Shown: one piece after another, positions 5,458-35,648 of the stretch
Position numbering within the stretch: the first letter of the stretch is position 1
How the letters are laid out: each line of letters begins with the position of its first letter
DNA from: a phage
Length of the DNA stretch: 64,000 nt
Reading direction: 5' to 3' (one strand)
Assembly: GCA_024672275.1 (NCBI GenBank)
Contig: GCA_024672275.1_4536.1
Made by a program: the position numbers and the translations under genes
The notes under the pieces: model-generated
Databases searched by the model: none
Seen by the model: only the letters and a program-made list of their open reading frames with translations
What the model was told of the DNA's origin: nothing

Positions 5458-6048
5458 TCAAATTATTAACGAAACCGCATGACTAAATCTTGGTTCAGAT
5501 ATAACCTCTGCTACAGTCACATATGTATCGTGCAGCCAAAAAGATTCTACTCTACAAACACAAATACCGTTGATAATGAAATCTACACAGGATTTATTAT
5601 TTTCGCACACTTGTTGACTATAAACAACCCCTAAAGAGTCATAAAGTGATCTCACTGTTGCTACCATCTCATCTGTTTCGTCTTCCTGTGAAACAAAGAA
5701 AACGAATACAGACAAGTTATTAGCGAAAGTATTGCTATTCTCTACTTCAACCGACTTACAAGGTAAAAAGGAGTAATATTTACCGTTAGGTATCAATTTC
5801 GCCTCAACCTGGTTAAGTATGCTTTGAGATGGTTTTGTTACATAAAAAAGATTTTCTGTTGGGTTTTCAACATTGCTCCTTACTATGCAACGAGTGGGGT
5901 TCGAAGGATCAAAAACATGATCGAAATCGACACACACAGGTAAGTTAACAACTTTAAACTTTTTGCTAAGAATGCTTACTGCTGTAAAAATCAAACCAGC
6001 ATTTATTTTGCCAGTGAAAGTTGAACGCATAACTACTCCTCGGATCAT
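5458..6048 (-). CDS. hypothetical protein
   Basis: 196-aa ORF. Confidence 0.5.
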   Translation of the reverse strand: MIRGVVMRSTFTGKINAGLIFTAVSILSKKFKVVNLPVCVDFDHVFDPSNPTRCIVRSNVENPTENLFYVTKPSQSILNQVEAKLIPNGKYYSFLPCKSVEVENSNTFANNLSVFVFFVSQEDETDEMVATVRSLYDSLGVVYSQQVCENNKSCVDFIINGICVCRVESFWLHDTYVTVAEVISEPRFSHAVSLII

Positions 6049-7682: not shown

Positions 7683-7703
7683 AAGAAATGCCCCCGAAGG
7701 GGC
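7683..7703 (-). terminator. intergenic hairpin (gcccc-ttcg-ggggc), possible terminator/attenuator
   Basis: Perfect 5-bp GC stem with tetraloop downstream of HslV-like stop; tail only moderately U-rich. Confidence 0.4.
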
Positions 7704-7709
7704 AGTTTG

Positions 7710-8402
7710 TTAAATAGCGGTTCCTTCGAAATCCGCCACATTTACGAGATTAATATTTTCAGATTTAGAAGTCAAGTTGTTTTCTGCAACAGATTTTTCT
7801 TCAGTATCCGCCTCGTTACCTGCCACGTTACGAGGTTCTTCTTCACCGTAGGGATTACCGAATTTCAAAAGATTGATCAATTCTTCTTTGGAGAAGTTTT
7901 CTAAATCATCATCTGTTAATTCAATAATCTCGTCTTGTTCTTCAATAAATGTTTCACCACCAGAAAAAGCATCTCGCTTTTTAGCTACTTCCATAGCCTG
8001 TTCTGGTGTTGCCCCTGCATCAAGAGCAGCTAAAGCAAAATCTGACCCACTCCCTACTGCATAATATTCTTCATCAATCGGATATGCACGTGTTGGGTTG
8101 TTACCTTCGTGCAGGAAAATACGTCCGTCTGGATGAACAACAAGTGCAATAAACTCTTCATCTTCTTTATCTGGATCAGAGTGAATCATCAAACCAGGGA
8201 CAGCATCACGTGCTGCTTCGCACTGTAGATTTTGTTCAAACCATTGAAAGAAAGAAAGCACGGAGGTCAGACGACCAGCACCACCTACAAGGTAATCTCC
8301 AATTTTTCGGACCTTTTTGAAATTAATAGAATCTACACGTCCACCAAAAGTTACCTTACCGTCACTCAAAATCTTATTTTTGGTTGCAATAATTGTCGTC
8401 AC
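7710..8402 (-). CDS. HslV-like (proteasome beta-type, Ntn-hydrolase) peptidase
   Basis: N-terminal MTTIIA (Thr right after Met), FKKVRKI, VGGAGRLTSVLSF and YAVGSGSDFALAAL match HslV blocks from memory; acidic C-terminal tail. Confidence 0.65.
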   Translation of the reverse strand: MTTIIATKNKILSDGKVTFGGRVDSINFKKVRKIGDYLVGGAGRLTSVLSFFQWFEQNLQCEAARDAVPGLMIHSDPDKEDEEFIALVVHPDGRIFLHEGNNPTRAYPIDEEYYAVGSGSDFALAALDAGATPEQAMEVAKKRDAFSGGETFIEEQDEIIELTDDDLENFSKEELINLLKFGNPYGEEEPRNVAGNEADTEEKSVAENNLTSKSENINLVNVADFEGTAI

Positions 8403-8905
8403 TATTCTTCCTCCTCTGTTAATGTTTTAAGAACCGCTTTCCCGCCATTCACGTATTTGCAGATGTATTCTATCGCACGTAGCGTCTCTTTGTCAACAAA
8501 AATTTGATCAGACGTTGCGAGCGGGTTATTAAGAAGATCACTGCAATCACGAACAAGCAGTGCTTTCTTATTAAACAAATTACTTAAGAACAGTAACTTC
8601 GCCTCTTCTTCTGTTATGTGCAGAAGGCTAGGATCGGAGCCAGCTATTCCTATTATACAATCAAACAAGCTTTCTTTACTATCAGAAAGTTCTTGAAAAT
8701 GGTTTAAAAGCCAATCTTCTCCTAGACACCAACATTTAAACATTTCCAGTTTATCTCGGAGGGTCATATTCTCTAAAGTAAGAGCAATCTCTTTTTCAAT
8801 ATGGTTTACACAAATTTGACGAAATTCGTTAGGTTTTACGAGTCCCGTTTGATAGCACTCATCTATACCGCTTCTTCCGATAGCTATTGTTGCTACACCC
8901 ATCAA
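8402..8905 (-). CDS. hypothetical protein
   Basis: 167-aa ORF, start overlaps HslV-like stop. Confidence 0.5.
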   Translation of the reverse strand: MMGVATIAIGRSGIDECYQTGLVKPNEFRQICVNHIEKEIALTLENMTLRDKLEMFKCWCLGEDWLLNHFQELSDSKESLFDCIIGIAGSDPSLLHITEEEAKLLFLSNLFNKKALLVRDCSDLLNNPLATSDQIFVDKETLRAIEYICKYVNGGKAVLKTLTEEEE

Positions 8906-8937: not shown

Positions 8938-9696
8938 TTAAATAAACACTTCAGTAATCAGTTTAGACAAACGTCCACGTTTATTATCGTCCGTTGTCAG
9001 TTCAACGTATCCAATAAAATCTACAATTGGCTCACGAACACCTTCTTCATTTTCTGGATATAAAAGTTCCAAAATTTGATGCAGACCATTGCTACGTTTT
9101 TTAATTGCATATGTCTGGCGAACATCGCCTAATACAATAACATGCGTATTAATACCTGCACGTTCAATAAGAAGTTTAAGTGTTTCTGTTGACATAAGTT
9201 GTGCTTCGTCAATAATGACGATTGTATTATCCAGGGTAGCCCCTAACAAATAGTTAGGAATATTCAATTCGATCTTACCTGATCCAATATCGTTTTCCAA
9301 TTTGTTGGCTGTCATGAATTGCTGGAAAATACGTTTTGTAGATTCATAGTGTGCTGCTAGTTTATCTGTTTTATCCCCCGACAAGAAACCAATCTGATCA
9401 TCTCCGACTTCAGTAGGGTTCTTGATAAAAAGTAGTTTACGGAAGTCTCCTGAACGAAGCATCTGCAAAGCTTTCCATAAAGCAACAGAGGTTTTACCAG
9501 TCCCTGCCGGAGCATTTACAACAGTCAGATCATTCCAAATCATGCTTTGAACAATCTTATTTTGGTCCCCTTCAGGCATAAATTCATCTAAACGGTAATC
9601 GTCATTACCTACCGCTTTTGCTGCATAACGGCTTTCAATCTTTGCTGAATTAGCCAGTTTCTGCCGTTGTGTTTTAGCTGCGGTTTTATTTCCCAT
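8938..9696 (-). CDS. phoH: PhoH-like ATPase
   Basis: Walker A APAGTGKTS; start set to internal ATG (MGNKT) preceded by AAAAGGAG. Confidence 0.85.
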   Translation of the reverse strand: MGNKTAAKTQRQKLANSAKIESRYAAKAVGNDDYRLDEFMPEGDQNKIVQSMIWNDLTVVNAPAGTGKTSVALWKALQMLRSGDFRKLLFIKNPTEVGDDQIGFLSGDKTDKLAAHYESTKRIFQQFMTANKLENDIGSGKIELNIPNYLLGATLDNTIVIIDEAQLMSTETLKLLIERAGINTHVIVLGDVRQTYAIKKRSNGLHQILELLYPENEEGVREPIVDFIGYVELTTDDNKRGRLSKLITEVFI

Positions 9697-9715
9697 AGTA
9701 GCACTCCTTTTAGAA

Positions 9716-9729
9716 GGGGCCGAAGCCCC
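9716..9729. repeat. conserved hairpin element ggggc-cgaa-gcccc (copy 1)
   Basis: Identical 14-nt palindromic hairpin also at 14006-14019; lies between lysozyme stop and PhoH RBS. Confidence 0.6.
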
Positions 9730-9733
9730 TTTA

Positions 9734-10234
9734 TTAGTTGTAAGCATCTAAAGTTCCAGAAGTCAGAACTTTAATTACTCGTTCAGCACGGTTTGGCGTC
9801 TGGCTATACCATCGGCTTTTACGCATGTTTTTACCTGCTTGAGTATAATATGCATTGCTGATTAAAGTCAAGCTATTTTGAAACCCTTCAGCACCTTTTA
9901 ACCCCAACTGGAAAACCATGTTGATTATTCCCAATTTACGAGTATCACTAACCTTATCATAGATTGGTGATAAGATAGTACTGTTTTTTATGTCTCTCTT
10001 CACTTTTGCAACATCATCAGCAAAGATTTGACGGGCTTCTTTTTCTGTGATAACTCCATTAGTCTTACGACCAAGAAGATTATCTAAGATTTGAATAGCC
10101 TTTGCTTTATCTTTTATTTTAGTCAGAAGGTGTCCTATGCCGACTGTCCAATAACCAAGATGGTCTTGATAAACAGTAAGCTTCAGTCCTTCATCGACTC
10201 GTAGCATATCAAACTCATCTACTACTTTAGCCAT
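9734..10234 (-). CDS. endolysin, T4 lysozyme-like (GH24)
   Basis: EGLKLTVYQDHLGYWTVGIGHLL matches catalytic region of T4 lysozyme E. Confidence 0.85.
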   Translation of the reverse strand: MAKVVDEFDMLRVDEGLKLTVYQDHLGYWTVGIGHLLTKIKDKAKAIQILDNLLGRKTNGVITEKEARQIFADDVAKVKRDIKNSTILSPIYDKVSDTRKLGIINMVFQLGLKGAEGFQNSLTLISNAYYTQAGKNMRKSRWYSQTPNRAERVIKVLTSGTLDAYN

Positions 10235-33956: not shown

Positions 33957-34031
33957 GGCCCTGTAGCTCAATGGGAGAGCTGTCGGCTCATAACCGATAG
34001 GTAGCTGGATCGAAACCAGCCAGGGCCACCA
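33957..34031 (+). tRNA. tRNA with CAU anticodon (Met or lysidine-Ile), CCA encoded
   Basis: Hand-folded: 7-bp acceptor ggccctg/cagggcc, anticodon loop ctCATaa, T-loop atcgaaa. Confidence 0.7.
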
Positions 34032-34033
34032 AC

Positions 34034-34108
34034 GTCTTTATGGTGTAATGGATAGCACAGGAGTCTTCTAAACTCTTAGTCAAGGTTCGATTCCTTGTAA
34101 AGACACCA
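34034..34108 (+). tRNA. tRNA-Arg (anticodon UCU)
   Basis: Acceptor gtcttta/taaagac, loop ctTCTaa, T-arm caagg-ttcgatt-ccttg, CCA encoded. Confidence 0.7.
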
Positions 34109-34304
34109 GAACATTTTAACATGAATTAGCTCAAGTGATTTGAACCCACTACTGATCATGGTGGCAGAGAATGAGGCAAGTATGTCAGACATTATAAACA
34201 AAGGCCACGGTTATATTAGAAGACATAAATGCTCGAAGAGCACCGTTCGTTGAGAACGGTGGTTGGTGGAGTCACCATTCATGGTAAAATGTTTTAAAAA
34301 ACTA

Positions 34305-34334
34305 TTGACAACTAACATTATTTTATGTTAGATT
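34305..34334 (+). promoter_or_regulatory. sigma70-like promoter (TTGACA-18-TAGATT), ACTATTGACAA family
   Basis: About 8 nt upstream of tRNA-Ser 5' end. Confidence 0.5.
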
Positions 34335-34342
34335 ATAAGTAT

Positions 34343-34433
34343 GGAAGGGCAAATCGACGTGGCGACGAAAACGGTCTTGAAAACCGCCGAGCTTGAAAGA
34401 GCCTTGGGAGTTCGACTCTCCCTCCTTCCGCCA
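34343..34433 (+). tRNA. tRNA-Ser (anticodon UGA), class II
   Basis: Long variable arm, loop ctTGAaa, T-arm gggag-ttcgact-ctccc, discriminator G, CCA encoded. Confidence 0.7.
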
Positions 34434-34437
34434 GATT

Positions 34438-34523
34438 GGTAGATTGGTGAAATGGTAGCCACGACAGTTTGCTAAACTGTAGTCGGAAACGGCGTGTAGG
34501 TTCGAGTCCTACATCTACCGCCA
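34438..34523 (+). tRNA. tRNA-Ser (anticodon GCU), class II
   Basis: Acceptor ggtagat/atctacc, stem acagt/actgt, loop ttGCTaa, long variable arm, discriminator G. Confidence 0.7.
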
Positions 34524-34653
34524 AGTTCTTTTTAATATAGCTTACTTTAATAGAGTAAACTTTCGGCAGATGGCCCCCACCATCTTACCGATACCTCATA
34601 GTTAGTGGTGCGAACACTGGCTATTTTAAAAAGAATTTAAATATTAGTATTTA

Positions 34654-34741
34654 GGTGAGTTAATTCCGTAGGGGTAGCGGGGCAGACTGTAAATCTGTTA
34701 TCATTGCGATTCGGGTGGTTCGACTCCATCACTCACCACCA
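34654..34741 (+). tRNA. tRNA-Tyr (anticodon GUA), class II
   Basis: Acceptor ggtgagt/actcacc, loop ctGTAaa, long variable arm, CCA encoded. Confidence 0.65.
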
Positions 34742-34747
34742 AATTAA

Positions 34748-34833
34748 GATGAGTTGGCTGAACGGTTTAAGCGGCGGACTGTTAATCCGTGTTCGAAAGA
34801 ACGATATAGGTTCAAATCCTATACTCATCGCCA
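34748..34833 (+). tRNA. unusual tRNA: Asn-type anticodon arm (GUU) in a long-variable-arm (class II-like) scaffold, discriminator G
   Basis: 86 nt with CCA; stem gcgga/tccgt, loop ctGTTaa; 15-nt variable region gttc-gaaa-gaac. Confidence 0.55.
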
Positions 34834-34840
34834 GAATTAT

Positions 34841-34917
34841 GGACTTGTAGAGTTAAGGTAAACCCCCAGTCGCCAAGAGGCTTCTGGAATTGCAGGTATC
34901 GAATCCTGCCGAGTCCC
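34841..34917 (+). pseudogene. degenerate tRNA-like element
   Basis: Acceptor ggacttg/cgagtcc and T-arm-like gcagg...cctgc (8-nt loop) but no regular anticodon arm; no CCA. Confidence 0.3.
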
Positions 34918-34923
34918 AGCTTT

Positions 34924-34998
34924 GCTCCTATAGTATAATGGCTATTACAACGGTTTTGTAATCCGTGGATCTCTGTTCGATTCAGAGTGGGAGCACCA
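34924..34998 (+). tRNA. tRNA-Thr (anticodon UGU)
   Basis: Acceptor gctccta/tgggagc with one GU, D-arm gtataatggctattac, loop ttTGTaa, T-arm ctctg-ttcgatt-cagag, CCA. Confidence 0.6.
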
Positions 34999-35271
34999 AT
35001 ACAACATTAAGGGCACTGTGATTGATCGTCGTATCCTGTGCACAAGGTCTGCTCGAAAGACAGTGTTCTTAGTATTGTGTTGATCACACAAAGAGTTACC
35101 TGAAACTTGACCGGAGTAGGGTTGGATGGGGCAAAAGAAGAAGCGGCTCTCCCATCGACAGCAACGAAGAATAATATTTGACTTTGGTTTTGTATTATTT
35201 TAAGTTAGCTTACCGAACGTAGGGCTAGTCACCCAATGGGATACTCGTCACTGTCCCACTCAATAAAACTA

Positions 35272-35301
35272 TTGACAACCAATAGTAAAATGTAGTATAG
35301 T
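35272..35301 (+). promoter_or_regulatory. sigma70-like promoter (TTGACA-18-TATAGT), ACTATTGACAA family
   Basis: About 11 nt upstream of tRNA-Gly. Confidence 0.55.
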
Positions 35302-35312
35302 AAAGATGTAGG

Positions 35313-35386
35313 GCGTTCTTGGTGTAGCGGTAGCATTCCGTCCTTCCAAGTCGGCGGCACGAGTTCGATCCTCGTAGAACGCTCCA
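35313..35386 (+). tRNA. tRNA-Gly (anticodon UCC)
   Basis: Acceptor gcgttct/agaacgc, loop ctTCCaa, T-arm acgag-ttcgatc-ctcgt, discriminator U, CCA. Confidence 0.65.
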
Positions 35387-35484
35387 AATTATTTAATAAA
35401 GGGTTGCCAGAAAACTTTCTCTTTTACTCATGGTTTTCTCCTTCTCTCACACCTCTTCTGGTTGCCCTTCATTAAATGATTTAT

Positions 35485-35560
35485 TGGTTTGTAGTGTAGT
35501 CCGGTAGCACACGACACTTTGACTGTCGTAGGTTTGGTTCAAATCCAGACAGACCAGCCA
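35485..35560 (+). tRNA. tRNA-Gln (anticodon UUG)
   Basis: U1-A72 start, stem cgaca/tgtcg, loop ctTTGac, discriminator G, CCA. Confidence 0.7.
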
Positions 35561-35565
35561 TATAA

Positions 35566-35642
35566 CGGAATTTAGCTCAGTTTGGTAGAGCATACGCTTT
35601 GGGAGCGTAGGGTCGCAGGTTCGAATCCTGCAATTCCGACCA
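35566..35642 (+). tRNA. tRNA-Pro (anticodon UGG)
   Basis: C1-G72, D-arm gctcagtttggtagagc, stem tacgc/gcgta, loop ttTGGga, T-arm gcagg-ttcgaat-cctgc, CCA. Confidence 0.75.
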
Positions 35643-35648
35643 ATCAAA

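Follow-up and report, generated by a model that had tools for sequence, protein, structure and literature searches.

A phage DNA stretch of 64,000 nucleotides (nt; NCBI GenBank assembly GCA_024672275.1, contig GCA_024672275.1_4536.1), called the window below, carries on its minus strand a complete gene for a peptidase of 230 amino acids (aa). An initial annotation, made from the letters alone, had taken it for a phage-encoded HslV-like proteasome-type peptidase. Judged by its sequence and a structural model, the product is an N-terminal-threonine hydrolase of the proteasome superfamily with intact catalytic residues and presumed activity. By the same comparisons it is not an orthologue of HslV; it fits the PPH type of proteasome homologues lacking helix H2 and bears in addition a conserved C-terminal module, which refines the label "HslV-like". 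The gene is neither unrecognized nor new, being annotated in RefSeq and many GenBank records, and its family has been described computationally before, so that the finding mainly amounts to a corrected annotation, "PPH-type proteasome homologue with a C-terminal module" in place of "HslV". As to function, we judge it somewhat better than an even chance that the protein is a catalytically competent ring peptidase of the proteasome-beta/HslV superfamily that acts on peptides or unfolded proteins independently of HslU. The gene and its parts are as follows.

Positions 7710 to 8402, minus strand: complete coding sequence of the peptidase, 230 aa, starting with GTG (8402-8400) and ending with TAA (7712-7710); the product begins MTTIIATKNK.
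Positions 7929 to 8402, minus strand: predicted N-terminal nucleophile (Ntn) hydrolase core, residues 1 to 158, indicated by predicted local distance difference test (pLDDT) scores above 90, Foldseek, and invariant catalytic columns.
Positions 8154 to 8201, minus strand: acidic loop VPGLMIHSDPDKEDEE, residues 68 to 83, at the position of helix H2 and the pore loop in HslV.
Positions 7845 to 7928, minus strand: conserved C-terminal module IELTDDDLENFSKEELINLLKFG, residues 159 to 186, an acidic linker with two short helices.
Positions 7713 to 7844, minus strand: acidic tail, residues 187 to 230, poorly conserved and predicted to be mostly disordered (pLDDT below 50 at residues 189 to 218).

The MTTIIA start and the three blocks quoted in the initial annotation, FKKVRKI (residues 28 to 34), VGGAGRLTSVLSF (39 to 51), and AVGSGSDFALAAL (115 to 127), were all located in the 230-aa minus-strand open reading frame (ORF), and the likeness to Escherichia coli HslV seen there by eye was well above chance (BLASTP, 27% identity over 157 columns, E = 2e-9). 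Pfam PF00227 (Proteasome) matched with 25.6 bits against a gathering cutoff of 22.4 (E = 1.1e-5), PHROG 1040, "peptidase HslV family", matched end to end (E = 1.6e-63), and the best PDB match by sequence was T. maritima HslV (1m4y, E = 4.9e-9). An AlphaFold monomer model built on 67 homologues had pLDDT values above 90 across residues 1 to 158. Its top Foldseek matches, at about 1e-10, were HslV, the betaproteobacterial proteasome homologue (BPH), and archaeal and eukaryotic 20S beta subunits; at E ≤ 0.001, 967 PDB chains and 45 viral structure clusters were matched. In the model, the core adopts the alpha-beta-beta-alpha sandwich of proteasome beta subunits, an Ntn-hydrolase fold. The initial annotation had named two findings that would overturn its reading, no prediction of such a fold and loss of the N-terminal Thr in homologues, and neither refuted it.

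The catalytic positions in ORF numbering are Thr2 (codon 8397-8399), Asp14, Lys30, and Gly117-Ser118-Gly119, which equate with proteasome Thr1, Asp17, Lys33, and Gly-Ser129-Gly. In a 24-sequence alignment reaching down to 26% identity, M1, T2, T3, I4, D14, K30, G117, S118, and G119 were invariant, and G40-G43 were conserved at ≥90%. The protein has no propeptide, and the MT start was found in 213 of the 233 collected relatives, in agreement with the proposal that the catalytic Thr becomes N-terminal after Met removal. Methionine aminopeptidase accepts Thr in the second position, and removal of Met exposing the Thr nucleophile is established for E. coli HslV. In the mechanism that we favor, host methionine aminopeptidase would likewise remove the initiator Met and expose Thr1 without processing of a propeptide. 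Thr1 would serve as the nucleophile with Asp14, Lys30, and Gly117-Ser118-Gly119, whose conservation is observed and whose activity is presumed. The subunits would assemble, on the analogy of HslV and BPH, into a ring-shaped chamber, which would degrade peptides or unfolded proteins without host HslU, the acidic loop taking the place of H2 and the pore loop.

That the protein is a decoy without catalytic activity, or a remnant in decay, is highly improbable. Thousands of relatives conserve the catalytic residues and the MTT start, and 64 phage records hold the intact ORF at ≥99% identity, although one viable isolate, phage VEcB, described below, is without the catalytic N-terminus.

The proposal of an HslV-like peptidase stood as far as membership in the proteasome/HslV superfamily is concerned, but not as orthology with HslV. 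On the two HslV equivalog models of NCBIfam, the peptidase scored 32.2 bits against a cutoff of 137 (NF003964) and 31.4 bits against 157.75 (TIGR03692), compared with 303.8 and 288.2 bits for E. coli HslV. Because it fails both cutoffs by more than 100 bits and is closer to phage homologues of about 140 aa, it is not considered an HslV orthologue. With the core profile of the family, E. coli HslV reached 45.5 bits, compared with a median of 80 bits for relatives of 130 to 160 aa drawn from a search of 1.84 billion proteins. Structurally, where HslV and almost all proteasome homologues have H2 and a short pore loop, the phage peptidase has the acidic loop: DSSP assigned to the model a single long helix at residues 45 to 67 and a loop without helix at 68 to 83 (pLDDT about 81 to 89), which contains P69, G70, and P77. 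Asp81 in this loop and Phe84 just beyond it are nearly invariant across the 67-sequence alignment, and Glu82 is conserved at ≥90% among 61 members of the extended family. Two further differences from E. coli HslV are a first hairpin with 4 residues deleted and an H3/H4 connection 9 residues shorter.

No AAA+ partner was found nearby, as had been claimed: tblastn with E. coli HslU gave nothing below E 5.8 in the 64,000-nt window, and nothing at E ≤ 10 in the window together with the remainder of the reference genome NC_048196. In the phage collection, an HslU-like match was present in only 4 Escherichia records, compared with 107 Escherichia records that carry the peptidase. HslU activates HslV through C-terminal tails that enter pockets between HslV subunits (PMC6429459, PMC7468587), and the pocket is reported to use HslV F54, F57, A79/K80, and Q114 (PMC6429459). 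These positions, together with K28, correspond to the following residues of the phage peptidase.

HslV F54, helix H1: Leu, by alignment.
HslV F57, helix H1: Phe, by alignment.
HslV A79/K80, helix H2: no counterpart, H2 being absent in the model.
HslV Q114, loop before S124: Tyr, by alignment.
HslV K28, hairpin: Ser, by alignment; this position is never Lys in the family.

Lys28 is said to have been described by Sousa et al. in 2000 as the anchor for the HslU C-terminal carboxylate. Since H2 is missing and several pocket residues are changed or absent, canonical docking of host HslU on the phage peptidase appears unlikely from alignment and model, and the suggestion in the initial annotation that the protein might borrow host HslU is weakened. 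In its full form, this alternative would have hexameric HslV-like rings dock on host HslU, competing with or replacing host HslV and redirecting ATP-dependent degradation during infection. We regard it as possible but rather unlikely. HslV is indeed the solved protein nearest in sequence, hslU is present in E. coli but missing from the phage, and the H1 pocket positions F57 and F54 are Phe and Leu in the phage protein; furthermore, both genes are GTG-started and encode MTTI. These points are set against the absence of H2 with its pocket residues, the Tyr and Ser at Q114 and K28, an identity to host HslV of 27% with scores far under the equivalog cutoffs, and the fact that the nearest relatives, phage proteins of about 140 aa, are also without H2. 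The jumbo phages that use an HslU-type ATPase, from Erwinia and Salmonella, encode their own. As an observation on the two genes, hslV of E. coli K-12 encodes MTTIV and the phage gene MTTII.

Among helix-bearing proteasome homologues, a 2021 survey found H2 missing only in PPH and RPC (PMC8665760). PPH proteins were described there as having about 140 residues and coming from Caudovirales and their hosts (PMC8665760). The nearest non-extended relatives of the peptidase are 137 to 156 aa long and have the common signature GSG…AL(D/E)AGA(T/S)xExA…D..(S/T)G. As H2 is absent, in line with the published description of PPH, the peptidase fits this type, enlarged by the acidic loop and the C-terminal extension. 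Several points weigh against reading it as a PPH-type peptidase independent of HslU. The assignment was made by diagnostic features and nearest neighbors, and placement in the survey's PPH cluster (reference sequence WP_042125023.1) is provisional. The two hydrophobic pocket positions in H1 are kept or conservatively replaced, so that the peptidase may still make an altered contact with HslU. HslU is present in E. coli and in most host genera of the peptidase-bearing phages. Finally, literature searches gave no experimental paper on any phage HslV-like or PPH protein.

The acidic C-terminal extension that had been noted as absent from HslV is real, with 18 D/E against 5 K/R in residues 159 to 230 and an isoelectric point of 4.05, but it is not merely acidic, a conserved two-helix module coming first. 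The helices of the module, at residues 164 to 169 and 172 to 181, were modeled with pLDDT of about 85. The consensus for linker and helices, (L/I)Tx(E/D)xLxxh(S/T)K(E/D)ELhxLL(F)(G/P), is present in 115 of 234 relatives, and the C-terminally prolonged form is common to at least 60 clusters at 50% identity. Tails in the family range from 0 to 194 aa with a median net charge of −7; as some relatives stop directly after the motif, the conserved element is the module and not the tail. Against Pfam, the module, searched as 8 fragments, gave nothing below E 0.03, and the best match of its profile among PDB sequences had an E value of 0.089.

C-termini in proteasome-like rings generally point outward (PMC8665760), which makes a docking or regulatory role for the extension plausible but speculative. 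By this analogy, the two-helix module and the acidic tail might face outward as a docking or regulatory arm. A further-reaching proposal is that module and tail form an undescribed docking or gating device of an unfoldase-free viral "mini-proteasome" that selects host proteins, such as defense or nucleoid-associated proteins, and that the domains appended in relatives (Cys-rich or helix-extended-helix-like) are interchangeable targeting heads. It is put forward as a conjecture that we consider distinctly unlikely to hold as a whole.

A helix-extended-helix, SAP, or Rho_N reading of the tails of long relatives, based on the pattern LxxLxxhAxxLGI…KxxL seen by eye, was not supported. The long tails gave a single sub-threshold Rho_N match (E = 0.0077, 16.6 bits against a cutoff of 24.9), their profile had a best E value of 1 against PDB, and hhalign of the module with the long tails gave a probability of 5.8%. 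Three metagenomic relatives of 324 to 379 aa (P0061, P0062, and P0063; L004 6001-7140) carry past the module a Cys-rich segment, CxH…KxKGxCxxCG, which may bind zinc to judge by its motif. Neither this segment nor the Trp-rich terminal domain after it had a Pfam match.

The module could instead recruit another partner, such as a different host AAA+ unfoldase, the PhoH-like ATPase, or the product of the adjoining ORF167. The phage-encoded candidates are the following.

Positions 8402 to 8905, minus strand: ORF167, 167 aa, PHROG 14834 (function unknown), the adjoining upstream gene; a neighbor and candidate partner.
Positions 8938 to 9747, minus strand: PhoH-like P-loop ATPase, two genes upstream of the peptidase; not an AAA+ unfoldase.
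NC_048196.1 positions 132886-134025, outside the window: gp174, 379 aa, the sole AAA ATPase of the reference phage (PF00004, PHROG 2376).

We consider such a partner improbable, even though the module is conserved while the tail beyond it varies, C-termini of related rings generally face outward, the stop of ORF167 overlaps the start of the peptidase, and a PhoH-like gene lies upstream on the same strand in distant relatives too. The only Walker-A ORFs in the window encode the PhoH-like protein, an exonuclease, and a small kinase-like ATPase. The PhoH-like gene precedes the peptidase on its strand in the window, in relatives of 45 to 50% identity, and in Vibrio and Aeromonas phages with a peptidase 35 to 37% identical, lying 0.5 to 3 kb upstream in the window phage and in the Vibrio and Aeromonas phages; it does not adjoin the peptidase of Caulobacter phage CcrPW. 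PhoH is an ATPase of another type than the unfoldases, and inherited synteny may account for its proximity, the order being lysozyme, PhoH, and then peptidase. Nor does the module match any known docking motif.

ORF167 was modeled by AlphaFold as all-helical with a pLDDT of 92.6, and no PDB fold match (best E = 0.2), Pfam match, PADLOC match, or function from an annotated PHROG was found for it. Its homologues are restricted to close relatives (Stephanstirmvirinae-like contigs) and are absent beside the Vibrio, Aeromonas, and Caulobacter copies of the peptidase. Structure and family searches were thus uninformative on ORF167 as a partner. The product of gp174 scored 29.9 bits on PF00004 and has remote solved relatives only. 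Its relatives are abundant in myoviruses of Enterococcus, Bacillus, Staphylococcus, and Lactococcus, and no phages of Gram-positive hosts were among the peptidase matches listed; conversely, most Vibrio, Caulobacter, and Rhizobium phages with the peptidase were not among the gp174 matches listed. With this independent distribution and no aromatic residue at the position aligned to pore loop 1, gp174 was rejected as a dedicated partner. RefSeq notes an AAA_2 domain on gp174, for which the AAA_2 model was below cutoff in our search, and genes of this type are sometimes annotated as clamp loaders.

In phage VEcB (Justusliebigvirus, NC_052663.1, 2165-2968), one 267-aa ORF fuses residues 1 to about 124 of PhoH to the peptidase from about residue 63 onward. 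The deletion removes ORF167 and the part of the peptidase active site that holds Thr, Asp, and Lys, so that VEcB looks like a viable phage with all three genes naturally knocked out. Unless this is an assembly artifact, VEcB propagates on its isolation host without needing PhoH, ORF167, or the peptidase, and the sequence suggests that the peptidase is dispensable in the laboratory.

The peptidase gene corresponds to phAPEC8_0094 and to Schickermooser gp078 and is the last gene of a codirectional block comprising the PhoH-like gene, ORF167, and the peptidase. Two signals flank it.

Positions 8410 to 8414, minus strand: Shine-Dalgarno sequence GGAGG, 7 nt 5' of the GTG start, read directly from the sequence.
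Positions 7689 to 7704, minus strand: terminator-like GC hairpin with a T-run, 5 nt past the peptidase stop.

The TAG stop of ORF167 (8404-8402) shares a base with the GTG start of the peptidase (TAGTG), and the two genes are probably translationally coupled given this overlap. A near-consensus sigma-70-type promoter candidate lies within ORF167 at window positions 8467-8496 on the minus strand (TTGACA, 18 nt, TAGAAT; 11 of 12 matches), some 65 nt before the peptidase gene begins; as a class, such sites were no commoner here than in shuffled sequence.

The window belongs to a Phapecoctavirus, a genus of phAPEC8-like myoviruses of E. coli in the subfamily Stephanstirmvirinae; more than 50 GenBank phage records from this genus match the region at ≥99% identity. 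RefSeq names the gene "peptidase HslV family", and other depositors use "putative 20S proteasome", "proteasome subunit beta", "nucleophile aminohydrolase", or "hypothetical protein". The identical-protein cluster, found on hundreds of contigs, includes phAPEC8 AFU62667.1. A peptidase match was present in 234 phage records, 107 of them from Escherichia phages, and the long contigs examined were all phage-like; the profile of the family retrieved 11,399 cluster representatives at E ≤ 0.001, cellular homologues included. Phage HslV-like genes without an adjoining HslU were noted earlier (PMC7823757), and proteasome homologues unaccompanied by HslU had already been published for phages (PMC8665760, PMC7823757). 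As regards membership in a defense system, PADLOC gave no match for the peptidase.

Elsewhere in the window, the equivalent of a 190-aa gene at 5458-6048 (minus strand), Schickermooser gp072, is labeled "histidyl tRNA synthetase" by RefSeq, as is a gene of about 184 aa in another part of the reference genome. This label looks doubtful, the genes being far shorter than those of real histidyl-tRNA synthetases. A tRNA cluster is located at 33957-35879 (plus strand), where ARAGORN found 10 tRNAs (two for Met and one each for Arg, Ser, Asn, Thr, Gly, Gln, Pro, and Ile); an 11th tRNA-like match at 34654-34738 was given by Rfam (39 bits) and not called by ARAGORN.

Phage-encoded proteasome homologues are numerous, and the point worth an experiment here is the role of the conserved C-terminal module. 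The peptidase belongs to a group of therapeutic E. coli phages that has been well studied and is easy to grow, with VEcB as a natural deletion mutant for comparison. If it is an unfoldase-independent chamber peptidase with a targeting arm, it would offer a compact model for proteasome-like rings before the recruitment of AAA+ partners, and for what phages gain by bringing their own protease.

HslV (ClpQ), the peptidase of the bacterial HslVU protease, is a dodecamer of two hexameric rings that HslU plus ATP activates. With it, the phage peptidase shares the predicted fold, the catalytic residues, and a Met-Thr-Thr-Ile start that needs no propeptide, and HslV is its best sequence match among solved structures; it differs in the low identity, the missing hslU partner gene, and the C-terminal extension. 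The superfamily also contains the monomeric ligase connectase and many homologues of unknown assembly state. In the phage protein, the loss of H2 and the shorter H3/H4 loop alter surfaces that make ring contacts in HslV. A sequence-specific Ntn enzyme, either a processing protease or a connectase-like transpeptidase and possibly monomeric, could accordingly be imagined in place of bulk degradation. We hold this to be quite improbable: the full proteasome-type catalytic set is kept, the helical insertion between S3 and S4 that gives connectase its specificity is absent, and the closest structures, HslV and BPH, are both ring peptidases.

BPH, a ring peptidase of group I, has a long acidic loop at its pore, and no unfoldase is known for it (PMC8665760). 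The acidic loop of the phage peptidase lies at the same pore position, and BPH (PDB 5OVS) was matched by Foldseek at E = 5e-10, whereas sequence similarity to it is negligible (E about 1) and BPH keeps both H1 and H2; template modeling scores of the phage model were 0.52 to 0.55 for BPH and 0.65 for HslV. RPC proteins, which have a PPH-like core and a C-terminal region of unknown fold, form a divergent cluster reported from proteobacterial genomes only (PMC8665760). By description, the peptidase resembles them in the absent H2 and the extra C-terminal region, but its family is phage-borne. The likeness to PPH comprises the phage origin, a compact group I architecture similar to HslV and BPH, the lack of a propeptide, the Thr1/Asp/Lys/Gly-Ser-Gly catalytic set, and the absence of H2. 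In contrast to the roughly 140 residues of PPH, the peptidase combines a 158-residue core, including the 16-residue acidic loop, with a 72-residue extension.

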